Source: Porphyridium purpureum (lineage: Eukaryota). Taken from it: a stretch of 51,698 bases of DNA. The position numbers and the translations under genes are program-made. How positions within the stretch are numbered: the stretch's first letter is position 1; each line of letters opens with the position of its first letter. The stretch spans positions 2,356,001 through 2,407,698 of the forward strand of contig VRMN01000002.1 in assembly GCA_008690995.1 (NCBI GenBank), written 5' to 3'. Below, one piece after another: positions 15,588-35,730 of the stretch. The notes under the pieces were generated by a model. The model saw only the letters and a program-made list of their open reading frames with translations. It was not told the DNA's origin and did not search any database.

Positions 15588-15711
15588 GCTGGGCTCGCTG
15601 TGCTGGGCTCGCTGTGCTGGGCTCGCTGTGCTGGGCTCGCTGTGCTGGGCTCGCTGTACTGAGCTCGCTGTGCTGGGCTCGCTGTGTGGGCTCGCTGTGT
15701 GGGCTCGCTGT
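15588..15711 (+). repeat. 14-bp minisatellite (GCTGGGCTCGCTGT)n; also at 36824-36933 with one fewer unit
   Basis: Direct tandem repeat. Confidence 0.93.
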
Positions 15712-16721
15712 TCGTTGCGTCCCGTCAGGCAGTGAGCTTCAGGGCACGCGTACTGTTGCACACGAGGCGGCTGCGCACAACAAGCTGGTGCGTTCATCGG
15801 GCGCGGTGCGCGGCTTGCAAAGAGCGTGGGCTAACGTTGGATGTTGCGGTGCGCGCACCTTTCAAGGCAGAAAGAGATGGATTGCATTTTTGGCCGCCGG
15901 GCTGGGCGACACTTTTGATGGCTGCGCGGTACGGGCTCGCTACGCCCTGTGCGCGTTGTGGACCAGCAAACTGTGGCAACACCTTTCCTTTTCGCGAGAT
16001 ATGGGCTCGCTGTGCACTGTGGCTTGCGTGCCGTTAAGCGCCAAGCTTTAGCGTGAGTGCATTGGTGAAAAAGAGGCGGCGTTGTGCGTCGATCTTGCTC
16101 GTTCGTTGTCCGCGGGGCGCACACGACGCAAAGAACGTGGGCAGTGGTTGAATGTCGCGATGCGCGTCGACGCCAAGCCTGCGCACTAAGACCGCGCGCA
16201 GCCGGAGAACGTAGGCGACGTAGCCTGAATCCGCATCTCGGCGTGACCGGTGCAACAGTGCCAGTTTCGTTATGCTGTGTCTTGCCAGATCGCAATGGCG
16301 CTGGCGCGATCTTGCACGTGTGCGCTCGTGAATGGGCTGCCGCGATTGTTGGTGGGACGTCGGCTCTGGAGTTGCGCAGACAAACGGCAGCCGAGGGCTG
16401 GCGCGAAAAATGGGGCGCCGATGGGGTGGTGCGGAAATCGTGGCGGTGACGGGCTGGTGAAAAGATCATGGCTGCGGCGATCGCGTCGCTACGCGCATGC
16501 CACACTGTTATATGTGTGCGATCAGCTCTGGCGCCGCTTCTCGCGAAACTTCGAGCTACTGCTGAAAGCATGTTACGAAAATAAAATACAACGTAGCCAA
16601 GAAAACTTGAGCCAGCGCTTTGCAGCAGACTCAAGACATACCCTTGAAAGACACGGACTTGCCATGTGTCATGCACAACTTTTCGAAGGCAAAGTGTGAG
16701 AATTGTGAGCGCGGGGAATGT

Positions 16722-16810
16722 ACTGAACACTACCGAAGACCACAGAACACTATAGGAGACCACAGAACACTACGAAAAGCCGCTGGACACTACCGAAGAC
16801 CACAGAACAC
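16722..16810 (+). repeat. 20-bp satellite (GACCACAGAACACTACAGGA family), segment left of element A
   Basis: Tandem units, continued at 22572. Confidence 0.9.
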
Positions 16811-17594
16811 CTTGGAATTTCTCCCTTTCTGCTTTGTAACCGAATCAACAAAACCGGATCGCTTCACCGATAACAGGAACTGGAAACCGCCACACCCCGG
16901 AAACTGACAAACCGACGACGAACCGACACACCGAAACGAACGGAAGGACAAGCAGGACAATCAGAGAAAAGTGGCTAGAAAGGAAGAGAGGACAGAAAAT
17001 TCAACTTATAGGGGACTACGAGAGGGAGTGGACCGGTCTTGACAAGTGAAGGGTGATGGAAGGTACGTTTAAACCCCAGCTGCCTTTTTAAAAACACTCC
17101 AGACCGATATCCGCTCGCACAACACGCTAGCGTGCCTCTCCCGCAAATCCAACCCAAGTCTTCCAACGACTGCCTCAATCCAACTAACCAATTCTCTTTT
17201 TATTCTATTTGCCCTTACCTCTTCTTCTACCTTGACCTGGAAATTCCTGGGAACCAGCTTGCCCCTTCGTCCTTTTATACCCTTCGTCCTTGCTCTTTCC
17301 AGCAAGGACGGGAGAACAAATTTCTCCAACAGGACGAATTTCCACCACAGGTTTTGATTCGTTCCACAACTCGCAACCACAGCCGGCCACGTATCCGAAA
17401 AATGGCCGGGAAGGCGCGTCAAGAACGAATCCAGAAGCTTCGGCCGGCCTTTGACCTTTGCACAAGGTCACACAAAACGACAATGACAAACATTTCGCAG
17501 GTCCGAGATCATCACGCTTCTCGAACAATCTTTCATCATAGAACTTTCTAGGGTTTTGTACTCAAAACCCTACGGCGTCTCTCGGGGCGGAACC

Positions 17595-20500
17595 CTAAAA
17601 TTCCACGCTCCTCCTTCCGGTCTGAGGGACGCGTAACTTCTCCCAGCACTTAATGTGGCCCTCCGGAAATAAGGCCTTGGTCATTAAGTCCGCCACATTT
17701 TCGTCCGTCTTCACAAATGCCAGTTTCACAAGTTTCTGCTTTTCGCACACCTGATGCAACCAGGCCAAATCTGTTGCTCGGGTTATCGCCATATGATGCA
17801 ACTTTGGCGAGTACCCCATCTCTATTGCTCGCATCACAGCTTGATTGTCACACATCAAAATCACCGAGAACTCTCCGTCACGTATACTTCGCAAGAAAGA
17901 CAATGCAGGAAACAACGAGAGTTGCACAGTTTCCTCTAGGGCAGCCAACTCCGACTCTGAAGTCGACGAGCTCACGAAACGCTGCTTTCTCGAAGACCAA
18001 TCCACTAGGTACTTGTAATCTCCAGCAACTAAGTACGTTGCTCTTCCAGAAGTCGACACACGACTCTCTGGACAACCAGCAAAGTCAGCATCCGTGTATC
18101 CAAGAATGTTCACCCCTCTGATGCCTTCCTTGAGATTCCCCAACACGTGATACTCCAATGCTTCCCGAGGTGTTTTCAAATACTGCACGACTCGTACGAG
18201 CAGCCTTTCTGCTGCCACATTCCACTTGTCAACGTACCGGGCAATCATACCGACTGCATACGCAATATCAGGTCGAACCGTTCTGGCGAGCCACATCAGC
18301 CTCCCGACGTGTTCTCTTACTTTCAAAGTCTTCCAGATGACTTGATAATTCAGAACTTCCTCGCCATCTAGCTTCTCAGATGGTGACTTCACGGCACGCA
18401 ATACGCGTCTAATATCCTGCTCAAATTCCCGAATGACCACATCTTGATACTCTTGATTCGCCAAACTCACGCTCCCATTTTTGAGGGAAATGCTCGTCCC
18501 CAGGAATCTCAAGGATCCTCCTTCCGTCAATAGTTCTGGTGCTTTTTCTATGAGAAACTCTTGTTTCAATTCTTCGATGATTCCTGGGCGTTCCTCCTCT
18601 CGACAGGCTAATAGACCATCATCCACGTACAGAGCCAACAACGCAACTGACGAACTTGCAGCATTTCTCCGGACGTACACATTCTTTTCACCATGCACGA
18701 GCTTCCACTGGAACTTTTGCAATCTCCTCCGAGCATCTTGTGAGAAATCCGAGCCGCTCCTGGGCAAGCCATACAGCGCCTTTCTCAGCCTGACTACTGT
18801 GTCTTTTGAATCACAAATTTCACGCGGTAAGTATGCAAACGTAGGTGGCCCAGACAGGTCCGCATGGAGGTATGCCGAGCTGATGTCGAAACTAACAATC
18901 TGAAGGCCCAGAATTGCAGCCACAGCTATTATCATTCGGATAGCTGACAAACCAGCAGGCGTCTCATAATCAAAAATGTCATTCGTCGCAGCTCCATCGG
19001 ACCCCCATATCCTGTTTCCCCCGGCCACCAAGCGGCACTTCACCTTGCGAAATTCTTCCGGCATCTCAGCAAATTTCAGACCGAAAATGAAATGTGTGCG
19101 TACGAAACGAGCACCAGGTTGCCTCCGGGCCTCCTCCAGCGTCAAGGGATTCTCATCCCATACCCCAAATCTCAGCATGGATTTGACTTCTTTTTCCATC
19201 GCGGCTCGTCCTTGCTCAGACGCTAACGCCGCTCCAGTTTTCAGCAAAGTCGTTAAGTTCAACTGTGGGATCGTCACTGGACCACCCGTGCCTGCTGCCC
19301 GTTCCTCGTCAACCACTCTCACTTTCAATGCCTCGATCTCTTTCTCAAGCTCCGCTTCTCGAGCTCTGAGAGCATCGATACGACGATCCAAGTCCTGCAC
19401 CGCTTCAACCGCGGATGGTTCGTCCACTTCTGGCAACTCTTCCTGCTGGCTCAGGCTCACCATCTCTCGTTCAATTCCCTTTAAAGGGAACTCATGGGTA
19501 AATGCCTTAAAATCCTGAGTGCGAATTACTTTTGGGGTCTCACTCGTCCAGTCATCCCGAGGAAGCACCAAAATTGCCATCGGATGCTCTCCAACGCCGA
19601 CGAGAATGCCAACTTTTCCTCGCGGTGCATACTTATTGTCAGGCTGATCATCTTTGTAGACCACCTTGCACCCGAATGGCAAACTAAGATTTCTCGGCGA
19701 CCATTTTTCACCACGTCGTAATTCAAACGGCGTCTTTCCAGACTTCCTGCCCACGTGAAGTCTATTCGTCATGAACGCAAAATGCTGCGCGGCGTGCATG
19801 AACCAACGCTTCCCGAGTCCGGCCTGCACAAGATTCGCACGGATTCCCTGATTCAGCGTGTGGTGAAACCGCTCCTGTTCAGCATGACTGTTTGGCCTGT
19901 ACGGAATCCCCACCTCGTGCTTTATGAGGTGTTCACGCACCAGTCTCCCCACATCTCCCTTGAACTCATTCCCATCATCCGTTCGCAAAACCTTCGGCCA
20001 TCCTCTCCCGGCTTGCACACTTTTCCAAGCGTCCGCAACCGCCGTGTGGGTTTTCGCACGTAGCCCCGCCAATGTCACCCATCCTGTGGCTCTGTCGATA
20101 TGCGTCAAAATAAACTTTGAACCATCTACCGACTTCACATTTCGCCCAGGCTCCACCAAGTCAATTCCGACTTCATCATTGAATGACAATGCACTGACAT
20201 CTTTCTCCAGCCTTCGGGCCGGGCGTCGCTTTATCTTCGCCACGACACACGTCTCACAGTCTCTTTGCATAGGCATGTGAGTCAACTCGTGTTCCGAAGC
20301 AGCCACGCTCTGATTTTTCCCGTCAAGCTCGGGAACCACTTCTTCAACATTTTCCAACGTGCATATTTCCTTCCCCTCGGGCCTCGTTTCCATCAGTCCC
20401 TTCTGCCAATCAATCTTAGGATTCACCATCTTGAGCCATTTCCACCCTAAGATGGCATCCATACGAATGGGACCGATATAAAACTCGACGTTCCCTATCC

Positions 20501-20801
20501 AGAAACCGAGGTCCACCGCAAGCACAATGGGGCCGTGCACCTTCATTCTCTGTCCTCCCGCAAGCTCGACCATGCATTCATCGCAACTGGACTTTACGCT
20601 TGCGTCCAAGAATCGGGACCCCAGGAAATTATGCGACGCTCCACTGTCAATCAAGAAGTCGATTTTTGAACCACTCACTTTCCCATGTTTGTAGAAGAGC
20701 CTTGACCTCGCACCCTCGTGCGCAACACCTTCCACAACACCCATTACAGGAGGCTCCATTCCCCTCGAGATCTCCTCCTGTCTTGGCTCTCGAGGTCTTA
20801 G
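17595..20801 (-). CDS. pol: Element A Pol: protease, integrase, coiled coil, RT (RVT_2-type), RNase H; entered by -1 frameshift
   Basis: FLIDSGASHNF; HELTH..CETC; GIDLV..LRTDDGNEF..HAEQERF; FDISSAYL, KALYGL, LYVDD; YTDADFAG, WSSRKQ, NVADLMTK. Confidence 0.95.
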   Translation of the reverse strand, partial: LRPREPRQEEISRGMEPPVMGVVEGVAHEGARSRLFYKHGKVSGSKIDFLIDSGASHNFLGSRFLDASVKSSCDECMVELAGGQRMKVHGPIVLAVDLGFWIGNVEFYIGPIRMDAILGWKWLKMVNPKIDWQKGLMETRPEGKEICTLENVEEVVPELDGKNQSVAASEHELTHMPMQRDCETCVVAKIKRRPARRLEKDVSALSFNDEVGIDLVEPGRNVKSVDGSKFILTHIDRATGWVTLAGLRAKTHTAVADAWKSVQAGRGWPKVLRTDDGNEFKGDVGRLVREHLIKHEVGIPYRPNSHAEQERFHHTLNQGIRANLVQAGLGKRWFMHAAQHFAFMTNRLHVGRKSGKTPFELRRGEKWSPRNLSLPFGCKVVYKDDQPDNKYAPRGKVGILVGVGEHPMAILVLPRDDWTSETPKVIRTQDFKAFTHEFPLKGIEREMVSLSQQEELPEVDEPSAVEAVQDLDRRIDALRAREAELEKEIEALKVRVVDEERAAGTGGPVTIPQLNLTTLLKTGAALASEQGRAAMEKEVKSMLRFGVWDENPLTLEEARRQPGARFVRTHFIFGLKFAEMPEEFRKVKCRLVAGGNRIWGSDGAATNDIFDYETPAGLSAIRMIIAVAAILGLQIVSFDISSAYLHADLSGPPTFAYLPREICDSKDTVVRLRKALYGLPRSGSDFSQDARRRLQKFQWKLVHGEKNVYVRRNAASSSVALLALYVDDGLLACREEERPGIIEELKQEFLIEKAPELLTEGGSLRFLGTSISLKNGSVSLANQEYQDVVIREFEQDIRRVLRAVKSPSEKLDGEEVLNYQVIWKTLKVREHVGRLMWLARTVRPDIAYAVGMIARYVDKWNVAAERLLVRVVQYLKTPREALEYHVLGNLKEGIRGVNILGYTDADFAGCPESRVSTSGRATYLVAGDYKYLVDWSSRKQRFVSSSTSESELAALEETVQLSLFPALSFLRSIRDGEFSVILMCDNQAVMRAIEMGYSPKLHHMAITRATDLAWLHQVCEKQKLVKLAFVKTDENVADLMTKALFPEGHIKCWEKLRVPQTGRRSVEF

Positions 20802-20807
20802 TTTTCC
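20746..20807 (-). promoter_or_regulatory. -1 ribosomal frameshift signal of A: G_GAA_AAC + H-type pseudoknot
   Basis: Heptamer directly before the gag stop; stem 1 CCTCGAGA/TCTCGAGG, stem 2 ACAGGAGG/CCTCCTGT; pol is in the -1 frame. Confidence 0.85.
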
Positions 20808-21745
20808 GGCTCTGGCGGACCACCTGCCAAGCGCTCCTTCAATTTAGGGCATTTGGGCTTAATGTGTCCACGTTCTCCACAATGGTAACACTTCACTTTG
20901 GTCTTGCCAGACTTCCGCTTGTCCATGGCTCCCAAATCCATTGGTGCGCTACCAGAATGCGACGAGAACGCCCTGCTATGAGTCGATGACGAGTTCTTGA
21001 TCACTTGACTCATATCTCCTCCGAACTTTGCAACCTGCTCAGCTGCCAACGCAACTTTCAGTGATTCTTCCAAGGTCCTTGTGTCCTGACGGGCCACCTC
21101 AATACGCAGTTTCTCCTTCAAGCCCAGCGTGAAGATGGTGTTCAGTTCTGCATCTGTCACATCTTCAACTGACAACGCTGTCATCCTGAGATTCTGCTCA
21201 AATTCTGCGACCGTCATTTTCCCTTGCTTCAACTGATACAGATTGGTGCGCGCTGTCAAATGCGCCTGCGGCGGCTCAAACGCTGTGCGCACGAAGTTTG
21301 CGAACGCATCCCATCCGGCCTCTGCAAGGCCCTTTCTCTGCTCCTCCGGACGAGCTGCCCAAAGCAGCGCTGCGTCCCTCTCGAAAAAGCGACTTGCAAC
21401 AATCACTTTCTGCGAGTCCAAAGCATCTGCGGGCATGCAGATATCCAGGTCGCTCTTCATTCGCATCAGCCATTCATTGACAACGAGCTTGTCACGCTGA
21501 CCATCAAACTTTCTCAAACTGCGCCCAATTAACGCGGCCATGGCACGATCGTTGTCACCAGACCCAGACGCCACGGTCTGCTGGCGCAACAAAACTTGCA
21601 TCATTTCATGGAGGTTACGATTCGCTTCCTGCACTTGTGCCATCATCATCTCCTGTCCCGCAATGCGCGCATGCAGCTGATTAGCTGCCTCAATCCATGC
21701 CGCATTCTCCTGCGGGACATTCATTTCCATTTCATGGCTTTCCAT
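20798..21745 (-). CDS. gag: Element A Gag with CCHC zinc knuckle
   Basis: LYQLKQGKMTVAEF, FTLGLK, APMDLG, CYHCGERGHIKPKC. Confidence 0.93.
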   Translation of the reverse strand: MESHEMEMNVPQENAAWIEAANQLHARIAGQEMMMAQVQEANRNLHEMMQVLLRQQTVASGSGDNDRAMAALIGRSLRKFDGQRDKLVVNEWLMRMKSDLDICMPADALDSQKVIVASRFFERDAALLWAARPEEQRKGLAEAGWDAFANFVRTAFEPPQAHLTARTNLYQLKQGKMTVAEFEQNLRMTALSVEDVTDAELNTIFTLGLKEKLRIEVARQDTRTLEESLKVALAAEQVAKFGGDMSQVIKNSSSTHSRAFSSHSGSAPMDLGAMDKRKSGKTKVKCYHCGERGHIKPKCPKLKERLAGGPPEPEN

Positions 21746-21762
21746 TCTCTCCAAACAACCGG

Positions 21763-21774
21763 GCGATGATACCA
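21763..21774 (-). promoter_or_regulatory. Primer-binding site TGGTATCATCGC (probably tRNA-iMet); identical at 30455-30466 and 39102-39113 (+)
   Basis: TGGTATCA immediately after the 5' LTR in A and C. Confidence 0.85.
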
Positions 21775-22571
21775 CTTGGAATTTCTCCCTTTCTGCTTTG
21801 TAACCGAATCAACAAAACCGGACCGCTTCACCGATAACAGGAACTGGAAACCGCCACACCCCGGAAACTGACAAACCGACGACGAACCGACACACCGAAA
21901 CGAACGGAAGGACAAGCAGGACAATCAGAGAAAAGTGGCTAGAAAGGAAGAGAGGACAGAAAATTCAACTTATAGGGGACTACGAGAGGGAGTGGACCGG
22001 TCTTGACAAGTGAAGGGTGATGGAAGGTACGTTTAAACCCCAGCTGCCTTTTTAAAAACACTCCAGACCGATATCCGCTCGCACAACACGCTAGCGTGCC
22101 TCTCCCGCAAATCCAACCCAAGTCTTCCAACGACTGCCTCAATCCAACTAACCAATTCTCTTTTTATTCTATTTGCCCTTACCTCTTCTTCTACCTTGAC
22201 CTGGAAATTCCTGGGAACCAGCTTGCCCCTTCGTCCTTTTATACCCTTCGTCCTTGCTCTTTCCAGCAAGGACGGGAGAACAAATTTCTCCAACAGGACG
22301 AATTTCCACCACAGGTTTTGATTCGTTCCACAACTCGCAACCACAGCCGGCCACGTATCCGGAAAATGGCCGGGAGGGCGCGTCAAGAACGAATCCAGAA
22401 GCTTCGGCCGGCCTTTGACCTTTGCACAAGGTCACACAAAACGACAATGACAAACATTTCGCAGGTCCGAGATCATCACGCTTCTCGAACAATCTTTCAT
22501 CATAGAACTTTCTAGGGTTTTGTACTCAAAACCCTACGGCGTCTCTCGGGGCGGAACCCTAAAATTCCACG

Positions 22572-22925
22572 AACACTATAGGAGACCACAGAACACTACG
22601 AAAAGCCGCTGGACACTACTGGAGACCACAGAACACTACAGGAGACCACAGAACACTACAGGAGACCACAGAACACTACAGAAGACCACAGAACACTACG
22701 AAAAGCCGCTGGACACTACTGGAGACCACAGAACACTACAGGAGACCACAGAACACTACAGAAGACCACAGAACACTACGAAAAGCCGCTGGACACTACT
22801 GGAGACCACAGAACACTACAGGAGACCACAGAACACTACAGAAGACCACAGAACACTACGAAAAGCCGCTGGACACTACTGGAGACCACAGAACACTACA
22901 GGAGACCACAGAACACTACAGAAGA
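22572..22925 (+). repeat. 20-bp satellite with 80/100-bp higher-order structure, between elements A and B
   Basis: Cycle gaacactacgaaaagccgct / ggacactactggagaccaca / gaacactacaggagaccaca / gaacactacagaagaccaca. Confidence 0.95.
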
Positions 22926-23255
22926 TGTTGAAGTACGCCCCCGGCGTAAACCCTGCAAAGTCAAGAAACGGTTTACTTTGTAATACCACTCGCGTCAAAA
23001 ACATATTCGCCTACCCAAACGCTACACTCAAAATTTCCACCCTACTCCTTGGCCCTGCAGCATTTTATACCCCTGTAGCTGCACTGTGGCGGCGGCGCGG
23101 AGATGCAAAGCGACAAGGAAACGTCAGTGTGGACTTCTAGAAACGTCGCAAACATACGTGCCCATGGCTCGTGCTAGCACGCAGGCTCGCACCCGACCGA
23201 ACACATTAAACAGTCCAAACAGTCCAAGTCGTTGACCCGGATAACCATTCAACCA

Positions 23256-26200
23256 TTAACCATTTGCACGTACATCAACACACTCCCGTCGGTCCGTGTT
23301 AGCCTGCGCTAGATTCGCAACCTCAACGCCCAACATGCGTTCACGAAGTGAGCGGAAAGCTTTTCCTTGCAGGGGCTTGGTGTGAGCGTCCGCCACCATC
23401 TGCTCCGTGGGGCAGTACGTCATCTCTATCTCGCCGCATGCAACTCTGTCGCTGACGAAGAAGTGCCTCAGAGCAATGTGTCGGGTCCGCGACGAGTTGG
23501 GACGCCCGTTACGAACTAATTTCATGGTGGCCTCGTTATCTTGGTACAACAGGGTGCTGAGGCACTCCACACCGAGCCCTCGCAGCAACCTCTCGATCCA
23601 GAGAGCTTGACCTATGCAGTCACTGATGGCGACTAGCTCTGCCTCTGTTGAGCTCTTGGACGCGAGACTCTGACGGCTGCTCTTCCCGTACACCGTTCCG
23701 CGGCCCAGGCTGACCATGCAGCCAGAGTGGCTCTTCATGTCGCTGTGCACACCAAAGGACGCGTCAATGAAACAGTGCACGCGCGGCGCTCCGACGCACC
23801 CAAGTGTGAGCCCCAGCTCGCGCGTTCCTTGCAAGTACTGCACAACCCTGCGCAGCTTTTCTCTGTCTTGTTCGGTTGGGGCTTGTACTCGACCCGTCAA
23901 GAATGATGCCGCGACCAGCAGATCTGGTCTCGCCCTCTTGCTGAGATAAAGAAGTTGACAGGCTGTCGTGTGGAAGGCTCTCGCGGAGGAAGCAGCCAGC
24001 AATGGCGAGTCTTGAACCTGAAACAGGTCGTCCAATGCGGGGGTTTTGCCACCGACCTTACCCAGCACAAATGGCTCGGCCTGCTCAATGATCTTGTCCG
24101 CGTATGCGGGCATCCTGACGGTAACTTGACCAGGTTGGTTATAGTCAAAAACCATTTGTAAATATTCAATCACACTGCCGCTGCGCATCGTGAGCACTCC
24201 GTACTCCGGCTCGAGTCCCTTTACCAGTTTGACGATCGCGGCGTCGTTTACAGCCATAATCTTCATGTCGTCCACGTGTAAAGCTAACCAGGTGTCGTCT
24301 TCATCGCTTCTGAACACGCAATAGTCTACCATGCTTCTTTGGTATCCCAACGCCGCGAGGCTTCGACATAGATGGTCATACCATAACTTTGCGCTCGTCC
24401 GGCAACCATATAATGCTTTCTTCAAGCGACAGACTAATGTACCTGAAGCAGACAAATGGCTCTGGAGTGTCGGATCAGCGGTCGTCATACACTTCGCCAG
24501 CGCCTTTGCGAACCGAACGAAAACGGGTGGATCACCGCTTGGCATCACTGCATTCAAATACGCACCTGGAAAATCTACACTGGCAACCTTTCTCCCTTGT
24601 GTTGCTGACATGGCAGCAAGCGCAAACAACGACTCAGTAGCGACTGTTGGGGACGACGTATTTGGGTACAACTCCGGATCCTGTCGATCACCCCCAGCAA
24701 CCAGTCGAGCTTTCAAGCGCACAAGCTCTCCGGTTTGTGGATCACGTTTCTCCGTCACAAACAAATGCACGGGCAAAACATTGCGCAACTCGTCTTCACT
24801 GAGTCTCCTTGTCACAGGCTCAAACACGTCGTGACCATTGGACCCCAACTGCACGAGCTCGCTCATGACCGATTCAAGTGCAGGCTCGCCATACTCCTGG
24901 ACTGCTCTCAACCATGAGACGGTCGGCGCTTTCAAACAGTGCGCTTGGACAAACTCTGTAATTAGAGCTAGCCTAATTCTACGCCTTTTTGCTTCCCCTG
25001 CGTATGTATTGCACCCGTCACTTCCGCCTTGATCCGCTGCCGTTCTTTTGGTGCTAAGTCCGCCGACAGAAGCCGGTCCAGCCTGTTCACCATGTCCGTC
25101 CAGTACGTTTTTCGTTGTCATTGTGCAATCTGCGAGATCCCACTCTGCAGGTGCCCCTTCGACCACGCCGACTTGAACAGCCTGACCTTCGCCTAAGACG
25201 TCGTGATCGTCGCTGACCTGGTAGGCAGCAGCACGTTTGTCAAGCGCGTGGATCTGTTCCTGCAGAATGGCCTCTTTTCGAGATAATTCCTCAATTCTTT
25301 TCTCGATTGCTTCGACCCGCACTCCCGGATTTTCCTCTGCGTTTTCTCCCGCTCCTGGATTACGGTTCGGTTGTGATGATTCTACTACTGCTGACGTGCG
25401 CGAATTCTCCAGAGTTTCTTCATGTTCATTCGCAGAACGCGCTGCACGTGTCTCGCTAAACGCTCCGGCTGACAAGGTCAACCCACTAGCTGTTCGAGTC
25501 GCTGCTGCCCCAGCTGGCTTGCCTGCCTCCCGTCCGGCGGTGTCATGTTTTTCTGCCTCATGCTCATGATCTTCTGTCGCGAGTTCAAGGCGCGCAGTGC
25601 CACGCATGGCGTTAACAGCGGCAACAACCTCTTGTGTAATGACAGTTTTCCTCCACCGTTGTCTGCGCAACTCTTTCTGCGACGCGAGGTTTAGAAAAGC
25701 CCACGTTCCTTCAACATTGCCTACCGGGTATAGAGCTATACAGCCGGTGGCGCGTGGTGTCATCGTGTTGTCCACCTTGGCATTCATGATGAGAACGTAA
25801 TCGCCAAAACCGAGACTCACATCGGCTGTGCTGCTAACTTTTCGCCCGGTCATTCTGGTCCACGGAGTCTCGTCATCTCGCCAACCTGTGCTGCTTGGTA
25901 CGATGTTGGCCCGGTGAGTTACATACTTCATTAGCGCTGGAACCAAGCTGGTCGGCAATGCAAAGGGTAGGCCATGGATGACAGCCCTCGCTATGTCCTT
26001 CAGCGTTCGATTGGCACGCTCCACTGCTGGTACGGCCTCTTTCGCTCCCGTGACATTTGGTAATATGCCGGACCTTTTCATGTCATCAACGATAGCAACA
26101 ATCCCCGATTCCGGGTCCGACTTGATGACCCTGATCACCACGTTGTGACCTCGCAAACTGGCAATTTGTTCTTGCAGTGCCCGGCGCAGCTCCCATGACG

Positions 26201-27098: not shown

Positions 27099-28130
27099 TC
27101 ACTCGACCGTGCGCTCTTTCTTGAGCTCCAGCTTAAGTTCCTGAAGTTGACGCTGGCACTCGCCAAGTTTTTCTTCCATGGTTCGTGTGTGAGCGTCCCT
27201 GGTCTGGTTCCTTTCCAGTGCCCTCTTCTTCTTCCAGCAGTTCTTCTCCAGGTGTCCCGGGATACCACAAAAATGACACTTCCCCTTGGAACCGCCTACA
27301 TCAGCTTTTGCAACCGCAGCTATCGCTTCACCACTTACAGTGGCCGCCTCGATGGCTAACTGGGCTTCATTGGATTGCGCAACTGAAACGGACACATAAC
27401 CAGGCGCATACTTGTACGCGGAGACGTACAAAACCACGTCCTGAACGCTTGCAAATTGTCGCTCGGCATTGTGGGCTTGGCGAATTGCCTCTGCGAAGCG
27501 CGACCGCTCCAACTTATGGAAGAACTCTTCCGCCTGACGCGCTGCACTCATCTCCTCGCCTACAAGGGCGAGAACCATCGCTGCGGCCGCAAACCTGGTT
27601 TTGAAATCATCCAGAGAATCTGCTCCAATTTCTATAGCTTGAAACCGCTCACGTGCAAATGTACGGCAACGATCCACGGATGCGCCATTCGGTGTCAGGT
27701 GCACCACGACGATTAGATTTTTCAGCTGGAGAGGATCGTTGCGAGATCTTTCAAGCATCTCAAACTGCGGGCGAGCAGAAAGAGCCGCAACGGAAGACGT
27801 AGACAGCTGTCCGCGCATAATCGCATAGATTCTGGACCTCGCGAGCTCCATATCCGCGCTCCATTTGAGCGCGGTGCTCAACTGTGATTTGGCGATTTCC
27901 TTGTCTCTCCAGTTGTCGGGCTCCTCTGCGTCCGGTAGGGCCGGGCCCTCTGGGTACCTCGCATTATTGAGGTCGAAAATCGCTCCGAGCAACCCAAATT
28001 CAACAGCTGTGTAGCCTCCAAGCGCACGGAGCCATTCCGTGACTTCCTCGGCCGGCCGCATCTCGGTCGCATCATACCTCAGTAGCGGGAGTCCCTCCGT
28101 TACTCCCTTTTCGCCAATCTTCTTGGCCAT
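27099..28130 (-). CDS. gag: Element B Gag with CCHC knuckle; TGA stop in frame with pol
   Basis: CHFCGIPGHLEKNC; position between the 5' LTR and pol. Confidence 0.9.
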   Translation of the reverse strand: MAKKIGEKGVTEGLPLLRYDATEMRPAEEVTEWLRALGGYTAVEFGLLGAIFDLNNARYPEGPALPDAEEPDNWRDKEIAKSQLSTALKWSADMELARSRIYAIMRGQLSTSSVAALSARPQFEMLERSRNDPLQLKNLIVVVHLTPNGASVDRCRTFARERFQAIEIGADSLDDFKTRFAAAAMVLALVGEEMSAARQAEEFFHKLERSRFAEAIRQAHNAERQFASVQDVVLYVSAYKYAPGYVSVSVAQSNEAQLAIEAATVSGEAIAAVAKADVGGSKGKCHFCGIPGHLEKNCWKKKRALERNQTRDAHTRTMEEKLGECQRQLQELKLELKKERTVE

Positions 28131-28611
28131 TTTGTCTGCCGCACGCCGCTCGAACTTCCTGTCAGCGCCGTCGGCCTTGTCCCCCCGTACCCTTGACCGG
28201 AGATCCTACTTCCGCTCGTACTCTTGACGAAGCGGAGGAAGCGTTGAATGTTTTTGTGTTGAAGTACGCCCCCGGCGTAAACCCTGCAAAGTCAAGAAAC
28301 GGTTTACTTTGTAATACCACTCGCGTCAAAAACATATTCGCCTACCCAAACGCTACACTCAAAATTTCCACCCTACTCCTTGGCCCTGCAGCATTTTATA
28401 CCCCTGTAGCTGCACTGTGGCGGCGGCGCGGAGATGCAAAGCGACAAGGAAACGTCAGTGTGGACTTCTAGAAACGTCGCAAACATACGTGCCCATGGCT
28501 CGTGCTAGCACGCAGGCTCGCACCCGACCGAACACATTAAACAGTCCAAACAGTCCAAGTCGTTGACCCGGATAACCATTCAACCATTAACCATTTGCAC
28601 GTACATCAACA

Positions 28612-28795
28612 GAAGACCACAGAACACTACGAAAAGCCGCTGGACACTACTGGAGACCACAGAACACTACAGGAGACCACAGAACACTACAGAAGACCAC
28701 AGAACACTACGAAAAGCCGCTGGACACTACTGGAGACCACAGAACACTACTGGAGACCACAGAACACTACAGGAGACCACAGAACACTACAGAAG
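28612..28795 (+). repeat. 20-bp satellite, between elements B and D
   Basis: Same units as 22572-22925. Confidence 0.95.
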
Positions 28796-28796
28796 G

Positions 28797-29465
28797 TGTA
28801 GAATAAACCCCCGACTGGTGGTATTACAAGGCATTGAGTTACTCTAGGTCGGCACGACAACGGCGTACTTTACTTACCTTGCCAAACACGCGGTGGGCAA
28901 ACAAACTACAGCACTCCTTACGGAGACACGTTGTTCCCGCTCCCTAGGCACGCGCCCTCGCCGCCGCTTTTATACGCGCCCCCGCTGCCCGTACATGAAC
29001 GTTACGCCCGCCACACGAGCAACCACAACCTGCGCATCCGCCGTATACACCCGCCCACAAACCGTAACGTCAACCCGCACACAGACGCACAACTTCTCGG
29101 TTTGCTCACACACTCCTTTTGTGGTCGCAGTCGTGGTCAACCGCACGGATCAACTTCGCAGGCGCATCGATTCCCAACAAATTATCTCGCATCTTCACAA
29201 ACTTCGAACCTTGTAGCGGCTTCGTAAGAGCGTCCGCCAGCATGTCTTCGGTTCTACAGTGCTCTAGCACCACGAGCCCTTTCTCCACCAAGTCACGTAC
29301 AAAGAAGTGGCGTATGTCAATATGCCTCGAGCGCTTGGTCGTGCCTCGGCCGGCATTGATGAGTGCTAATGTGGCCGTGTTGTCCTGTAACACCGCCACC
29401 TTGGAAACAGCCACACCTTGGCTGCAGAGCATCTTGTATGCCCATAGGCCTTGTCCGACAGCGTC
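28797..29465 (-). mobile_element. 3' remnant of copia element D (B-related): 3' LTR ~28797-29110 plus RNase H C-terminus, truncated at CTAGGGTTAG
   Basis: ORF 29106-29432 reads LQDNTATL..RSRHIDIRHFFVRD..MLADALTKPLQG. TG..CA bounds; the CA|CACTCC junction matches B. Confidence 0.85.
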
Positions 29466-30476
29466 TAGGGTTAGAGGCGTTTTTCAGGTAGGGTGGGCCC
29501 TGCGGTTCGGCCATACCATAGTACAGTTGCTTCGGACTCTAGTACAGCTGCTTCAGACTGTAGTATTGGGTTAGTGCGTTTTGGGAAGGATGTGTGGTCC
29601 ACAGTGCAGTTCGCAGTGCAGTCAGCGTACTACAGTATAGTGAAATCATGGATTAAAAGTGTTCCGGTCCGAGAGACGCCCTGGGTGTACACCCGGAGGT
29701 ACGGCGTCTCGGAATTGTTTGAGGTACAGGGGCTTTTTCGCCCACGTGGTTTTTTACCCTGTACCTCTGGTTTGTGCATTGTTGTCTTTCGCCCCGAGGA
29801 GCCGGAGTCGCGTGTCCGAGGGAAGCAGGAGCCGCTTGGCGGCCGGCCAGCACCCATTGAGCCGCTTGCTGACGTGGCTGGCTGTGGCTTCGTTCTGTGG
29901 AACGAACGGAGGAAAGCCCAGCCTTTGGGAGAAATAATTTCTCCCTTCCGCGTCAAGGACAGCAAGGACGGCGGGGTATATAATGGGCGCGGGCCTGTGC
30001 GGTTCCCCGGATTTTCTTTAGAGCGGAAGAAGGAGAGGCAAGGGAGAAGGACACAGAGAATAAAAGGAAGAGTTGTTCTTTGGTGTCGGGTGCCTGGGCG
30101 TGGTCGTCGGAAGGCGTGGGGCCTTTTGCTGAGCCTGTGTAGCAGAGCCAGCAGCACATCGTGTCTGGGGGGTTTCGGTGCTCTTGGAGCACTGAAGGCA
30201 GACGGCGGCTTTGTCCGTTACGACACCCTGCCCCTGTCGAGACCGGTGCTGTCTGTGCCGACGCGAAAGGCAATAGTAGAGGCCCTATACGCTGGATTTT
30301 CCACGCCCCGGGTATTCGTCGTCTGTGTTGTGTGCGTCGTGTGGTTGTGTTCTCTGTGCTGTGTGCGTCGTGTTGCTGGGGTTCGGTCATCTGAGAAGGG
30401 TTGTGTCATCCGGGTTCGTGCGCTTGTCATCATCAAGCGTGCGAGAATTTAAAGTGGTATCATCGCATCGGCGAAG

Positions 30477-31433
30477 ATGGATTCTGAGGGAATGGACGTG
30501 CAGGGCCTGCAGGGCGGCGCGTCGTGGATTGAAGCTTTCAACCAGCTTCATGCTCGTATCGGAGGACAAGAAATGATGATTGTGCAGCTGCAGGAGGGAA
30601 ATCGCCTCTTGCAGGAGATGCTGCAGAATGTGATGCATCAGGCATCTGTGTCAGCTGGTCCCGGCGAAACGGAAAGGACCGTTGCATCGCTGATTGGACG
30701 CAGCTTGAGAAAATACGACGGACAGCGCGACAAACTCGTTGTGAACGAGTGGTTGTCGAGGATGAAGCAAGACTTGGACATGTGCATGCCAGCTGGAGCG
30801 CTGGAGTCGCAGAAGGTGATCGTAGCGTCGCGCTTCTTTGAGAAGGATGCCGCGCTGTTGTGGGCAGCTCGCCCTGAGGAACAGAGGATGGCATTGGCCG
30901 AGTCCGGTTGGAATGCGTTCGCGAGCTTCGTGCGGACGGCATTTGAGCCGCCGCAGGCATACCTGACTGCTCGAACGAACTTGTATCAGCTGAAGCAGGG
31001 CAAGATGACTGTTGCTGAGTTTGAGCAGCGCCTGAGGATGGTGGCTCTGTCCGTGGATAGTGTGACAGATGCCGAGCTCAACACCATCTTCACTCTCGGC
31101 CTGAAGGAGAAGCTTCGCCTTGAGGTGGCGCGTCAGGACACGAAGACGCTGGAAGAGTCGCTGAGGGCGGCGTTGGCTGCGGAGCAGGTTGGTAGGTTTG
31201 GAGGAGACATGAGGGAGGCTTTTCATGGCGCCTCGAGTCCAAACTACCGGAACAGCTCGTCGTATGCCGGGACGGCGCCAATGGATTTGGGCGTCGTGGA
31301 GAAACGCCAGCCGGAGAAGCGCAAGCATGCGGACATGGGCAAAGTCAGATGCTACCATTGCGGGCAGCGCGGCCACATCAAACCCAATTGCCCAAAGCGG
31401 AATGGGCACTTGGCGGGAGGCCCGGAAAACTAA
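30477..31433 (+). CDS. gag: Element C Gag
   Basis: Clear homolog of A Gag; APMDLG; CYHCGQRGHIKPNC. Confidence 0.93.
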   Translation: MDSEGMDVQGLQGGASWIEAFNQLHARIGGQEMMIVQLQEGNRLLQEMLQNVMHQASVSAGPGETERTVASLIGRSLRKYDGQRDKLVVNEWLSRMKQDLDMCMPAGALESQKVIVASRFFEKDAALLWAARPEEQRMALAESGWNAFASFVRTAFEPPQAYLTARTNLYQLKQGKMTVAEFEQRLRMVALSVDSVTDAELNTIFTLGLKEKLRLEVARQDTKTLEESLRAALAAEQVGRFGGDMREAFHGASSPNYRNSSSYAGTAPMDLGVVEKRQPEKRKHADMGKVRCYHCGQRGHIKPNCPKRNGHLAGGPEN

Positions 31434-31483
31434 AACCTCGAGGGAGAAGTTGGGAGGTGCACTCGAGGGGAACGGAACCTCCC
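31424..31483 (+). promoter_or_regulatory. -1 frameshift signal of C: G_GAA_AAC + pseudoknot
   Basis: Stem 1 CCTCGAG (31436-31442) / CTCGAGG (31462-31468); stem 2 GGGAGGT (31452-31458) / ACCTCCC (31477-31483). Confidence 0.85.
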
Positions 31484-34400
31484 GGGATGGGCTTTGTAGG
31501 TGAGGTCTGGCGCGCTGATGCGGCGTCGAGGTTGCTCTACAAGCGTGGAACTTTAGATGGCGAGTCTGTCCAATTTCTGGTGGACAGCGGAGCATCGCAC
31601 AATTTTCTTGGATCTCGCTTTGTCGGCAGATTTGAAGGGCGCGAGAACGGAATGGTCAAGCTTGCGGGTGGGCAAAGTGTCTTAGTGCATGGCCCGGTGT
31701 TGCAGCATGTTGATCTTGGGTTCTGGAAAGGGCCGGTCAAGTTTTATGTCGGGCCTCTGCAAATGGATGCAATTCTCGGGTGGGACTGGCTGAGTCGCGT
31801 GAACCCGAGGATTGATTGGCAGAGGGGTTCGATGGACTTGGGACTTGAAAATGTGGAAGATTGTGCGATGGTGAATGTCGTGGACGCTCTTTCCGAGTCA
31901 AGCGGAAATCAAGCGTACGATGGAGAAGAGGAGAGTGCCAGTGAAGGGGTCGAAGGAAAGATGGCCGGGATGGAACATGCGTTGACTCACATGCCGATGC
32001 GGGATGATTGTGAGACGTGTGTTGTGGCCAAGATCAAGAGCCAACCAGCAAGAAGGCTGGAGAAGGACTTGTCCACTTTGTCGCTCAATGACGAAGTTGG
32101 GATCGACCTGGTGGAGCCCGGACGTAACGTGGAAGCCATCGATGGGGCGAAGTACATACTGACGCACATCGATAGAGCGACGAGGTGGGCCACACTGGCA
32201 GGATTGAGAGCCAAAACGCATACGGCGGTTGCTGAAGCTTGGACAAGCGTGCAAGCCGGGCGAGGATGGCCAAAGGTACTGAGGACAGATGATGGAAACG
32301 AGTTCAGGGGAAATGTGAGCAATTTGGTACGGGAGAATCTCGTGAAGCATGAGATTGGCGTCCCACATAGACCAAATAGCCACGCTGAACAGGAACGTTT
32401 CCATCATACTTTGAATCAGGGGGTACGAGCAAATCTCCTGCAGTCTGGGCTGGGAAAGCGGTGGTTTTTGCATGCCGCTCAGCATTTCGTCTTCATGTTC
32501 AATCGGCTGCACCCAGACAAGAGGTCTGGGAAGTCTCCGTATGAAATGAGGTACGGTGAGAGATGGAAGCGGGGGAAGGTAGCAGTACCATTTGGATGCA
32601 AGGTGGTGTTCAAGAATGATCAACCTGAGAACAAGTATGCACCCAGAGGAAAGATTGGAGTCCTTGTTGGAGTTGCGGAGCATCCGCTGGCAATCTGGGT
32701 CCTTCCTCAGGAGGAGTGGACGAGTGCGGCACCGAGGCTGACTCGCACTCAGGACTTCAAGGCGTTCCCTGAAGTGTTTCCAATGCGGACTTTGGAAACA
32801 AGGGATGACGAGGAGGTCTCGGCACGTGAGGGTGAAATCGACTTTCACTCTAGGCAGGAAGAACCGGATAGTCAAGAGACTATGGTGTTGCCTACGAATA
32901 CGGCCGAGGCGCGTGAATCCGGGAACTTGGAGGAGGATGTTCCCCTACCTGTTGGAAGAAGGGGGAAACGAAAACCCAGGGTATCTTGGAGCCGGGAAGA
33001 GGATCAGGCCATCATGGATGGCTTACGGCTCTTTGGCTGGGGGAAGTGGGAAAGAACTCTGCAAGAATACAAGGCAGTGTTCCGCGATTCAAGAAACGGA
33101 AAGGATGTGCGAGCCCGGGCTCATAATATGGGCCTCTCGGAGGAAAATTGGAGGCAACGCGCAGGAGTTGCTCCAGAAACACCGCAATTGAACTTGACAA
33201 CTTTGTTGCAGACGAGCCAAGCTCTGGCTTCTTCGGCTGGAAGAGAAGCCATGCAAAAAGAAGTGGACTTGATGATCCGATTCAAGGTATGGGATGAGCA
33301 ACCTATTTCAAGGGAAGAAGCTCTCAAGGTCCCAGGCGCACGATTTGTGCGGACACACTTTATATTCGGATTGAAGTTCGCTGAGCTTCCGGAGGAGTTT
33401 CGCAAGGTCAAGTGTCGGCTTGTTGCTGGTGGAAATAGGATTTGGGATGCCTCAGGGAAGGTCACTCAGGATGTGTTTGACTATGAGGTGCCCGCGGGCC
33501 TGTCTGCAATCAGAATGTTGATAGCTTTGGCCGCGATCCTGGGATTGAAAATCGTGTCGTTCGATGTGACGTCGGCGTACTTACACGCTGACTTATCAGG
33601 ACCACCGACGTTTGCCATGTTGCCCCGTCACGTTCCAGGAGGAGGTGATGGACTTGTCGTTCGCTTGAGAAGGGCGCTTTATGGCTTGCCAAGAAGCGGG
33701 TCTGACTTTTCCCAGGATGCCCGCAGAAGACTTCAAAAGTTCGGGTGGGACTTGATTCACGGTGAGAAGAACGTATACGTGAAAAAGATGGCGGGAAGTG
33801 CATCTGTTGCACTCTTGGCCTTGTATGTCGATGATGGCCTGCTCGCGTGTGCCGAGAAGGATCGGGGTGAGATATTTCGAGAGTTGAGGTCAGAGTTCCT
33901 CATTGAGAAGGAGCCAGAAGTCCTCTCGGAAGGTACCCCGTTGAGGTTCCTAGGTCTCACGATCTCGGAGTCGGCGGCACGGCTTTCGTTGGATCATGAT
34001 CACTACCAAGCTTTGGTGGTGAAGGAATTCGAAGAAGAACTTGGGCAGGTGCTGCGAGCGGTGAAATCACCAGGTGAGAAGATGAATGCTGACGCTGTAT
34101 TGGATGTTCAAGTCGAACATGGACATCTGAAAATACGCGAGCATGTTGGGCGGCTGCTGTGGTTGGCCAGGACGGTCAGACCGGATATCTCGTACGCAGT
34201 TGGAGTGGTGGCTCGGTACGTGGATAGCTGGAACGTCGCAGCTGAGAGACTCCTGGTTCGCGTCATGCAATACTTGAAGGTTCCTCGTGAACCACTTGAG
34301 TATTTGCGGATGACGTCATTGAAGGTCGGTGACGTAAGCGTCTTGGGCTATGCTGATGCCGACTTCGCTGGATGTCCGGAAACGCGCAAGTCGACGTCTG

Positions 34401-34849
34401 GACGAGTGACGTACTTGGTCGCGGGTGGAAACAAGTATCTGGTCGACTGGAGCTCCAGAAGGCAACGCTTTGTGAGCTCTTCGACCTCTGAGTCTGAGAT
34501 GGCCGCTCTGGAAGAAGCGGTGCAGTTGTCTCTGTTTCCGGCATTGTCGTTTCTTCGAAGCGTGCAGGAGGGTGATTATGCGTTGACCCTGCTTTGTGAT
34601 AGTCAAGTTGTTCTCCGTGCGGTCAAGATGGGCTACTCGCCAAAGTTGCATCACATGGCAGTGACCAGAGCCACGGACTTGGCGTGGATACACCAAGTTT
34701 GCGAGAAGCAAAAGCTGGTGAGATTGGAATATGTGAGGACGGGGGAAAACGTGTCCGACTTGATGACAAAACCTTTGTTTCCGGAAGGTCATATCAGGTG
34801 TTGGACTATGTTACGCGTCCCTCAGATCGGAAGGAGGAGCATGGATTAA
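31430..34849 (+). CDS. pol: Element C Pol: protease, integrase, Myb/SANT domain, RT, RNase H
   Basis: FLVDSGASHNF; HALTH..CETC; LRTDDGNEF; WSREEDQAIMDGLRLFGWGKW; LYVDD; YADADFAG. Confidence 0.95.
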   Translation, partial: LKPRGRSWEVHSRGTEPPGMGFVGEVWRADAASRLLYKRGTLDGESVQFLVDSGASHNFLGSRFVGRFEGRENGMVKLAGGQSVLVHGPVLQHVDLGFWKGPVKFYVGPLQMDAILGWDWLSRVNPRIDWQRGSMDLGLENVEDCAMVNVVDALSESSGNQAYDGEEESASEGVEGKMAGMEHALTHMPMRDDCETCVVAKIKSQPARRLEKDLSTLSLNDEVGIDLVEPGRNVEAIDGAKYILTHIDRATRWATLAGLRAKTHTAVAEAWTSVQAGRGWPKVLRTDDGNEFRGNVSNLVRENLVKHEIGVPHRPNSHAEQERFHHTLNQGVRANLLQSGLGKRWFLHAAQHFVFMFNRLHPDKRSGKSPYEMRYGERWKRGKVAVPFGCKVVFKNDQPENKYAPRGKIGVLVGVAEHPLAIWVLPQEEWTSAAPRLTRTQDFKAFPEVFPMRTLETRDDEEVSAREGEIDFHSRQEEPDSQETMVLPTNTAEARESGNLEEDVPLPVGRRGKRKPRVSWSREEDQAIMDGLRLFGWGKWERTLQEYKAVFRDSRNGKDVRARAHNMGLSEENWRQRAGVAPETPQLNLTTLLQTSQALASSAGREAMQKEVDLMIRFKVWDEQPISREEALKVPGARFVRTHFIFGLKFAELPEEFRKVKCRLVAGGNRIWDASGKVTQDVFDYEVPAGLSAIRMLIALAAILGLKIVSFDVTSAYLHADLSGPPTFAMLPRHVPGGGDGLVVRLRRALYGLPRSGSDFSQDARRRLQKFGWDLIHGEKNVYVKKMAGSASVALLALYVDDGLLACAEKDRGEIFRELRSEFLIEKEPEVLSEGTPLRFLGLTISESAARLSLDHDHYQALVVKEFEEELGQVLRAVKSPGEKMNADAVLDVQVEHGHLKIREHVGRLLWLARTVRPDISYAVGVVARYVDSWNVAAERLLVRVMQYLKVPREPLEYLRMTSLKVGDVSVLGYADADFAGCPETRKSTSGRVTYLVAGGNKYLVDWSSRRQRFVSSSTSESEMAALEEAVQLSLFPALSFLRSVQEGDYALTLLCDSQVVLRAVKMGYSPKLHHMAVTRATDLAWIHQVCEKQKLVRLEYVRTGENVSDLMTKPLFPEGHIRCWTMLRVPQIGRRSMD

Positions 34850-35730
34850 AAGTGTTCCGGTCCGAGAGACGCCCTGGGTGTACACCCGGAGGTACGGCGT
34901 CTCGGAATTGTTTGAGGTACAGGGGCTTTTTCGCCCACGTGGTTTTTTACCCTGTACCTCTGGTTTGTGCATTGTTGTCTTTCGCCCCGAGGAGCCGGAG
35001 TCGCGTGTCCGAGGGAAGCAGGAGCCGCTTGGCGGCCGGCCAGCACCCATTGAGCCGCTTGCTGACGTGGCTGGCTGTGGCTTCGTTCTGTGGAACGAAC
35101 GGAGGAAAGCCCAGCCTTTGGGAGAAATAATTTCTCCCTTCCGCGTCAAGGACAGCAAGGACGGCGGGGTATATAATGGGCGCGGGCCCGTGCGGTTCCC
35201 CGGATTTTCTTTAGAGCGGAAGAAGTAGAGGCAAGGGAGAAGGACACAGAGAATAAAAGAGGAGTTGGTTCTTTGGTGTCGGGTGCCTGGGCGTGGTCGT
35301 CGGAAGGCGTGGGGCCTTTTGCTGAGCCTGTGTAGCAGAGCCAGCAGCACATCGTGTCTGGGGGGTTTCGGTGCTCTTAGAGCACTGAAGGCAGACGGCG
35401 GCTTTGTCCGTTACGACACCCTGCCCCTGTCGAGACCGGTGCTGTCTGTGCCGACGCGAAAGGCAATAGTAGAGGCCCTATACGTTGGATTTTCCACGCC
35501 CCGGGTATTCGTCGTCTGTGTTGTGTGCGTCGTGTTGCTGGGGTTCGGTCATCTGAGAAGGGTTGTGTCATCCGGGTTCGTGCGCTTGTCATCATCAAGC
35601 GTGCGAGAATTTAAAGGAAATGCGTACTTTCTGGGTTACTCTAGGGTTAAAGGAGGTTTTGCGGGTTGGGTTAGCTTACCTCATCTCTAGTACAGTTCAC
35701 GATCCACACTGTACACTACTGTAGGGTCTT

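Follow-up and report, generated by a model that had tools for sequence, protein, structure and literature searches.

A Ty3-type Gag and protease appear to precede copia-type integrase, reverse transcriptase and RNase H in two retrotransposons of Porphyridium purpureum

The window analysed here is a 51,698-nt stretch of the Porphyridium purpureum genome (assembly GCA_008690995.1, contig VRMN01000002.1, positions 2,356,001 to 2,407,698 of the forward strand). Three full long terminal repeat (LTR) elements, named A, B and C, and a fragment of a fourth were found within 16811-35616 of the window (Table 1). Two of them, A and C, are LTR retrotransposons that are intact and were inserted recently, and the reverse transcriptase-RNase H region of A matched proteins named Porphyridium purpureum at 99-100% identity in a protein database search. 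The initial annotation of this locus had proposed that A and C represent an inter-superfamily recombinant lineage. This proposal is supported by the analysis below: Gag matched Ty3-derived capsids, the protease grouped with Ty3 references, and the integrase and the reverse transcriptase-RNase H region grouped with copia. A and C are intact and likely active elements that very probably combine a Ty3 Gag-protease module with a copia integrase-reverse transcriptase-RNase H module, a build that likely arose by an old module replacement in a divergent copia lineage.

Table 1. LTR retrotransposon features in the window (window coordinates; domain types and frameshift signals are predictions).
Element	Feature	Position	Strand	Remarks
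A	complete LTR retrotransposon	16811-22571	-	delimited by self-comparison and translation
A	target-site duplication (TSD)	16806-16810 and 22572-22576		5 bp; flanks element A
A	5' LTR	21775-22571	-	797 nt; ends CG..AG
A	primer-binding site (PBS)	21763-21774	-	TGGTATCATCGC; adjoins LTR directly
A	gag	20798-21745	-	315 amino acids (aa); N-terminal helix, Ty3-type capsid, PMDLG motif, single CCHC knuckle
A	pol open frame	17595-20843	-	1082 codons
A	predicted -1 frameshift signal	20746-20807	-	G_GAA_AAC (20801-20807), stop, two-stem structure (20746-20795)
A	protease	20406-20702	-	Ty3-type; ILG motif
A	integrase	19485-20294	-	compact HHCC finger, DDE core, copia-type SH3-like tail
A	reverse transcriptase	18444-19211	-	RVT_2 (copia)
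A	RNase H	17670-18110	-	copia-type
A	polypurine tract (PPT)	17608-17618	-	GGAAGGAGGAG; adjoins 3' LTR
A	3' LTR	16811-17607	-	797 nt; 3 mismatches vs 5' LTR
B	copia element	22926-28611	-	TG..CA LTRs (355 nt, identical); LLS-like protease; internal control
C	complete LTR retrotransposon	29647-35616	+	
C	TSD	29642-29646 and 35617-35621		GAAAT
C	5' LTR	29647-30454	+	808 nt; ends CA..AG
C	PBS	30455-30466	+	12 nt, identical to that of A
C	gag	30477-31433	+	318 aa; Ty3-type; 72% identity to A gag
C	pol open frame	31196-34849	+	1217 codons
C	predicted -1 frameshift signal	31424-31485	+	G_GAA_AAC, stop, two-stem structure
C	protease	31529-31819	+	Ty3-type (ILG)
C	integrase	31973-32782	+	compact HHCC finger
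C	Myb-like domain	32978-33127	+	between integrase and reverse transcriptase; none in A
C	reverse transcriptase	33239-34009	+	RVT_2
C	RNase H	34337-34777	+	
C	PPT	34829-34839	+	just 5' of 3' LTR
C	3' LTR	34840-35616	+	777 nt
C family	second copy, truncated	38293-39297	+	LTR, PBS, ~60 gag codons; begins with the same CA end
C family	3' piece of a further LTR	14173-14493	-	ends AG
D	fourth copia fragment	28796-29465	-	RNase H end and apparent 3' LTR

The Gag motifs named in the initial annotation were present in the translations, as LYQLKQGKMTVAEF, FTLGLK and APMDLG, together with one CCHC knuckle. The Pfam models Retrotrans_gag (A, 2.5e-9; C, 1.7e-10) and Ty3_capsid (A, 1.5e-8; C, 3.3e-8) both matched above their curated cut-offs, while the copia Gag model Retrotran_gag_2 gave no match in A or C at E<=0.05. 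The best matches of A Gag in the ESM Atlas carried Retrotrans_gag at 0.95. A profile of four Porphyridium Gags, built with no Ty3 seed, found the capsid regions of dArc1 (1.6e-6), dArc2 (2.9e-4), Ty3 (0.0064) and PEG10 (0.016), as well as the capsid end and knuckle of HIV-1 Gag (5.6e-6), and matched the Drosophila Copia virus-like particle protein at the zinc knuckle only. A Foldseek search with a structural model of A Gag put the capsid of Ty3 and PEG10 at the top (E 0.007-0.015), and VIA-align gave Z 6.2 for the N-terminal domain of the Ty3 capsid. A single-sequence fold of Gag was too poor for use (predicted local distance difference test, pLDDT, 43), and PDB sequence searches with either Gag or Pol on its own were not discriminating. 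Judged by these profile and fold matches, Gag of A and C is of Ty3 type.

The protease likewise contained the motifs listed initially, LIDSGASHNF (in A; LVDSGASHNF in C) and DAILGWxWL..VNPxIDW. Pfam matches to Asp_protease_2 and gag-asp_proteas were weak, with A under both cut-offs and C over one; the copia protease model Pol_BBD gave no match in A or C at E<=0.05, and a local copia protease profile scored at most 0.3 bits. Both proteases carry ILG, not the copia-typical LLS; LLS is found in nearly all copia proteases and ILG in most non-copia proteases (Llorens 2009, PMC2774666, whose additional file 3 gives the few copia exceptions lacking LLS and may bear on novelty). ASPRV1 (5e-5) and then DDI1 led the PDB matches, and RVP_2/RVP clusters those in the ESM Atlas (0.94). 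In a tree of 34 proteases, A, C, three other Porphyridium families and two Ty3 references were separated from 27 copia proteases (support 100/96). The protease of A and C is thus classified, from its sequence, as Ty3-type.

Downstream of the protease the assignment changed. The order protease-integrase-reverse transcriptase-RNase H had been read correctly in A and C, as had the reverse transcriptase motifs KCRLVAGG and YVDD (with KALYGL in A and RALYGL in C) and the RNase H motifs DADFAG and WSSRKQ (WSSRRQ in C). RVT_2 matched the reverse transcriptase of A (1.6e-18) and C (5.2e-17) above its cut-off, and RVT_1 gave no match in either at E<=0.05. Reverse transcriptase and RNase H scored 21-72 bits against 10 copia references and at most 0 against Ty3 references. 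Per-domain scores to Ty3 references were 19-20 bits for the capsid and 19-23 for the protease, and those to copia references were 30-72 for the reverse transcriptase and 21-56 for RNase H; the integrase scored 13-75 bits against copia references and 14-23 against the single Ty3 integrase. The switch from Ty3 to copia references thus falls between protease and integrase. Matches to the integrase region were mostly copia polyproteins, and SH3_retrovirus matched weakly. The integrase, reverse transcriptase and RNase H of A and C appear from these comparisons to be copia-type.

Several points weigh against the Ty3 assignment of the front end, that is, of Gag and protease. The A Gag model had a pLDDT of 65 and an input alignment holding one Ty3 protein, and it gave no Foldseek match at E<=0.001. 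The C-terminal domain of Gag was not diagnostic, with VIA-align Z scores of 12.5 for PEG10, 10.9 for murine leukaemia virus (MLV) and 10.8 for Copia; both Copia capsid domains resemble other retrovirus-like capsids (PMC11835246). Gag was assigned from profile, Atlas and fold matches. Only two true Ty3 references (P0069 and P0085) were used, both recovered with the query's own protease or Gag, and because the references came from the query's domains the protease tree and the per-domain score table are biased toward a Ty3 grouping.

Relatives were sought with a profile of the integrase-reverse transcriptase-RNase H part, blind to the front end, which was searched against 1.84 billion representatives; the best 150 matches were analysed, and Pfam scans covered 30, 29 and 11 relative proteins. 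Among these 150 matches, 37 had a canonical copia front end and 3 a Ty3-type front end, with 110 uncallable by profiles. The compact finger H-x3-H-x6-C-x2-C, which differs from the canonical copia finger, was present in A and C as originally described, but it is not part of the chimera: it was found in 48 of the 150 and marks a wider copia clade. In a tree of 52 reverse transcriptase-RNase H sequences, A and C fell inside a clade of 36 compact-finger sequences (100/100) and, within it, a mostly Porphyridium subclade of 15 (98/97). A tree of 47 integrases placed them among the same compact-finger copia relatives (94/87, 10 sequences). Compact-finger relatives carry LLS-like proteases, including P0246, whose finger closely resembles that of A. 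Three families, P0088, P0089/P0236 and P0243/P0106, all named Porphyridium, had a Ty3 Gag, a Ty3-type protease and RVT_2 as in A and C; P0088, P0089/P0236 and P0243 were about 31-33% identical to A Pol where aligned. As a separate observation, the compact-finger copia polyproteins P0100, P0128, P0134, P0137 and P0182 had further domains, namely C-terminal AAA_28, zf-CW and, within Gag, CCCH fingers.

The region is piled with repeats, nested insertions and truncated copies, so that an assembly artefact, or a dead accident of nested insertion, had to be considered as the source of the mixed build. This is extremely improbable. Protease, integrase, reverse transcriptase and RNase H form a single open frame in A and in C, the LTRs of each element match and a TSD flanks it, and the junction is common to two families with saturated synonymous sites and to three more families. 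The initial annotation had argued against an artefact from the divergence of A and C, and synonymous sites were near or at saturation between them (proportion of synonymous differences, pS, 0.69-0.83). Twenty of the 24 sequencing runs listed (11 studies) contained at least half of C's sampled words. In a comparison of four runs with C, a DNA contig of another run spanned 31243-33933 (gag end to reverse transcriptase), and an RNA-library contig spanned 30425-32138 gap-free; that library may hold DNA, and the contigs do not show transcription. Because three more Porphyridium families share the build and contigs from other runs bridge the junctions, the build of A and C is that of an old lineage and not an artefact. 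Nonsynonymous divergence (dN) between A and C was 0.09-0.33 in capsid, protease, integrase, reverse transcriptase and RNase H, and all five domains are under purifying selection. Since synonymous sites are at or near saturation and dN is low, the Ty3 and copia parts have been maintained together for a long time.

Two histories could have produced this lineage. In the likelier one, a Ty3 Gag-protease module would long ago have replaced the original module of a divergent copia lineage, with the crossover placed between the protease and the integrase finger. The swap would probably have occurred by template switching in co-packaged RNAs or by recombination between nested elements. The alternative is that A and C are living relics near the Ty1/copia-Ty3/gypsy split, a near-basal copia branch that has copia enzymes and order and an integrase joining untrimmed ends, and that kept the Ty3-like capsid and ILG protease of its ancestor, other copia elements having later gained LLS and their own Gag. 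Such a relic, which we regard as unlikely, would fit with ILG being the state of most non-copia proteases (PMC2774666), and the position of A and C as sister to the Ty3 outgroup was not rejected (p=0.29); nor was a single Ty3-fronted clade, so that the root could fall on that branch. Against it, supported branches nest A and C among compact-finger relatives with LLS-like proteases, the front end specifically resembles the crown Ty3 products PEG10, Arc and Ty3, and the PM[DE]LG motif is also seen in a fish Ty3 Gag, as PMKLG. In addition, front-end swapping is demonstrable in the same subclade, and confirmed members are limited to one host species. If the relic explanation were true, these elements would be a missing link rooting the LTR-retrotransposon tree and not a later hybrid.

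A module replacement nevertheless has results to contend with. The value of p=0.29 (approximately unbiased, AU, test) came from a tree of reverse transcriptases alone with one long Ty3 outgroup, and because A and C as sister of that outgroup were not rejected, the direction of change rests on nesting and not on the root. The Ty3-fronted families did not form one clade in the best reverse transcriptase-RNase H tree, which required four changes, most intervening sequences being without a front end. No Ty3-fronted member was confirmed outside Porphyridium, the 3 among the best 150 matches all being named Porphyridium and 110 of the 150 being uncallable. None of 26 metagenome loci had a Ty3 front end, and wherever a front end could be called it was canonical copia. 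On the other side, a single origin of the Ty3-fronted group was not rejected (AU p=0.48, 27 of 52 sequences used). Scans for related loci were negative in viral contigs (0 of 34, no pattern match, and 0 of 29 stretches) and in prokaryote genomes (0 of 33). Of the earlier term "recombinant lineage", the mosaic of Ty3 and copia parts stands; that the mosaic is recombinant and not a relic we infer.

Further evidence that modules move in this group came from P0238, P0240 and P0241, Porphyridium families of the same reverse transcriptase-RNase H subclade that have a canonical copia Gag and a Pol_BBD protease. Their integrases grouped with canonical copia (100/99), and joining their reverse transcriptase-RNase H to canonical copia was rejected (AU p ~1e-58). 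These families rest on public gene models, and all three agree. They appear from these trees to represent a second module swap, in which canonical copia Gag, protease and integrase were combined with reverse transcriptase and RNase H of the divergent clade. Exchanging modules appears habitual in this subclade.

Gag and Pol are separate open reading frames (ORFs) in both elements, with Pol in the -1 frame, a feature absent from the initial annotation. The end of Gag, CCG GAA AAC TAA, gives the heptamer G_GAA_AAC in both. The heptamer of PEG10 is G_GGA_AAC, and a slippery site may have GGA as its first triplet. Downstream of the heptamer in A and C are a 5-nt spacer, a 7-bp stem, and a loop that can pair with a later 8-nt stretch. 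All 15 of 15 pairs are kept in both, two having changed on both sides and one on one side, compared with 30-63% in slid controls. PEG10, which is derived from Ty3, uses pseudoknot-stimulated frameshifting, and yeast Ty1 and Ty3 use +1 shifts (PMC5009743). A -1 frameshift at G_GAA_AAC that makes Gag-Pol is predicted from the sequence. Three results count against this prediction: 121 of 500 shuffles of the two sequences gave a pseudoknot as good, which is not significant; single-strand folding yielded stem 2 alone (z -3.8 for A and -1.0 for C); and the heptamer was not found in the available part of the frameshifting review PMC5009743. In the public gene model P0004, gag runs on into pol in a single frame and the knuckle is dropped. 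This was interpreted as a gene-calling artefact because the RNA-library contig, from a library that may hold DNA, crosses the junction without a gap.

In the life cycle proposed for A and C, the LTR would drive one RNA. Its first ORF would yield Gag, and -1 ribosomal frameshifting at the heptamer, with help from the two-stem structure that follows, would yield Gag-Pol. Packaging of the RNA would fall to the Ty3-type capsid and cleavage of the polyprotein to the ILG-type protease. A host tRNA, likely tRNA-Met, would serve as primer at the PBS (we infer this primer from the PBS of A), and the PPT as that of the second strand.

Integration may also be unusual in these elements. The 5-bp TSDs border CG..AG in A and CA..AG in C, and the LTRs directly abut the PBS and PPT; canonical TG..CA next to the TSD was not found in A or C and was found in element B. 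Element A has a perfect 8-bp inverted repeat, TGGAATTT/AAATTCCA, set 2 nt inward from each end, and in C the inner right-hand CA is replaced by AA. The two LTRs of C align with 5 mismatches and 33 gap columns. Of the 17 loose ends listed from other runs, 10 lie at the LTR ends of A, all at or outside CG/AG; three are at 16811 (one mixed with a PBS junction) and one is exactly at 17607. There were no loose ends at the inner TG/CA of A among the matches listed. At the right end of C lay 3 of the 15 matches listed, all 1-4 nt outside AG. In A, though not in element C, the terminal C could instead belong to a TSD of 6 bp, which tells against an untrimmed end there. Two terminal bases are what retroviral-type integrases remove. 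As the simplest mechanism, the copia integrase would join complementary DNA ends without removing these bases, and because the ends are left untrimmed, two bases would still separate the inner TG/CA from the TSD. In most A and C flanks seen, the first base beyond the AG end was G, hinting at a target-site preference, though the sample is small and biased by listing. Known non-canonical copia families include TGTT, AACA, TARE1 (TA..CA) and AcCOPIA1 (TG..TA) (PMC5659011), and Zam ends in AGT..ATT/ACT (PMC3601003). Neither CG..AG nor CA..AG is among the non-canonical ends given in the available parts of these two papers.

The Myb-like domain of C matched Pfam at E 6e-5, slightly below the cut-off, and its PDB matches, TRF1 (4e-4) and B-Myb (9e-4), were too close to tell apart. 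Similar stretches were found in six relatives, one with a canonical front end, and P0090 was Pfam-positive. A role of this domain in target choice is a guess.

Element B gave no Ty3 Gag match in the Pfam scan. Its gag and pol share one frame split by a single TGA (27099-27101), which is possibly read through; its protease motif, LDTMAS, is unusual, and its Gag had no Pfam capsid match. The element D fragment is 45% identical to B across ~100 aa and is cut off at a TAGGGTT motif. A 20/80-bp minisatellite (16725-16810, 22567-22925, 28609-28792 and 37945-38292) is host to four insertions, namely A, B, the element D fragment and the truncated C copy, and may be an insertion hot spot or a safe haven. 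TAGGGTT / GGGTTACTCTAGGGTTA motifs, mostly on the + strand, occur at 29466, 35642, 35730, 39305, 39461-39564, 42993, 47608-47798 and 51266. They sit at several block junctions and truncations, including the ends of element D and the truncated C copy, and look like telomere-type repeats of a subtelomeric mosaic.

Elsewhere in the window, a 966-codon frame (11143-14043, - strand) contains ~21 near-identical 42-aa repeats (DNA likeness 94%) that are WD40-like by eye. At 2370-4970 and 5047-5791 (+ strand), a protein kinase with Sel1 repeats is followed by 111-nt tandem repeats, and akin repeat blocks lie at ~42100-42750 and 50400-51000. There are two segmental duplications, each ~98% identical: 14491-16810 versus 35731-38032, and 39481-43425 versus 47715-51698. 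An Rfam scan of 16000-36000 gave zero matches at E<=1.

The presence of at least five families in one alga indicates a stable cross-superfamily combination under purifying selection, with a second swap in sister families, and suggests that capsid-protease and integrase-reverse transcriptase-RNase H are exchangeable modules. The families of A and C are natural test cases for capsid-polymerase coupling, and with their CG..AG and CA..AG ends one can test directly if a terminal CA and 3' trimming are required by an LTR integrase. Annotation pipelines that demand TG..CA would miss or mis-call such elements. Beyond the initial annotation, the predicted -1 frameshift, the CG..AG and CA..AG ends, the Myb-like domain and the second swap are new. 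A literature search, with most subscription journals, Repbase and GyDB outside its coverage, found no description of a Ty3 Gag-protease joined to copia integrase, reverse transcriptase and RNase H. Symbiodinium elements have been classed as copia by domain order and reverse transcriptase, their front ends not being described in the available text (PMC5776459), and REXdb reports recombination among copia lineages and removed chimeric-looking elements as likely prediction errors (PMC6317226).

It is also conceivable, although very unlikely, that A and C belong to a described red-algal or diatom copia clade (GalEa, including PyRE10G and CoPorcru, or CoDi) with a Gag and protease that merely resemble those of Ty3. 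A 2008 report by Peddigari is said, going by its title, to concern a copia-like red-algal (Porphyra) element with a gypsy-like integrase, and was counted in favour of such membership. In A and C, by contrast, the integrase is the copia-like part and Gag and protease are the Ty3-like part. Both Porphyridium cruentum and Porphyra yezoensis are reported to have GalEa elements (PMC3587641, PMC5445492), but the GalEa-like CoRex1 has an HX4HX30CX2C finger, the PBS TGGTAGCAGAGC and TG..CA ends (PMC3587641), and A and C differ in all three. A and C were set apart from GalEa by these described features of CoRex1, the trees containing no reference sequence of GalEa or CoDi.

A and C resemble Ty1/copia in the order protease-integrase-reverse transcriptase-RNase H, the RVT_2 reverse transcriptase, the copia RNase H, the SH3-like integrase tail, the 5-bp TSD, the tRNA-type PBS and the PPT. 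They are unlike it in having Retrotrans_gag/Ty3_capsid instead of Retrotran_gag_2, ILG instead of LLS, the finger H-x3-H-x6-C-x2-C, CG..AG or CA..AG ends, and Pol in the -1 frame. The nearest copia elements are compact-finger elements, P0094, P0096, P0100 and P0246, from marine and other metagenomes and transcriptomes. With GalEa (PyRE10G of Porphyra, CoPorcru1/2 of Porphyridium) A and C share being copia elements of red algae. Capsid and protease type, the PM[DE]LG motif and one CCHC knuckle are as in Ty3/gypsy, PEG10 and Arc, and the predicted frameshift with a pseudoknot stimulator is as in PEG10 (PMC5009743); unlike Ty3/gypsy, the reverse transcriptase matches RVT_2 and not RVT_1, RNase H and integrase are copia-type, and the integrase precedes the reverse transcriptase. 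Gmr1-like Ty3 elements also have an integrase upstream of the reverse transcriptase and a Ty3 front end (PMC2774666, PMC3587641), but they are gypsy elements in which the integrase has moved, whereas reverse transcriptase, RNase H and integrase of A and C appear copia-type. Like TGTT, AACA, TARE1 and AcCOPIA1, A and C have ordinary TSDs next to LTR ends other than TG..CA; those families have TG or CA, intact or altered by one base, at one end at least, whereas A and C lack a canonical end on either side, and A retains the TG/CA inverted repeat 2 nt further in.

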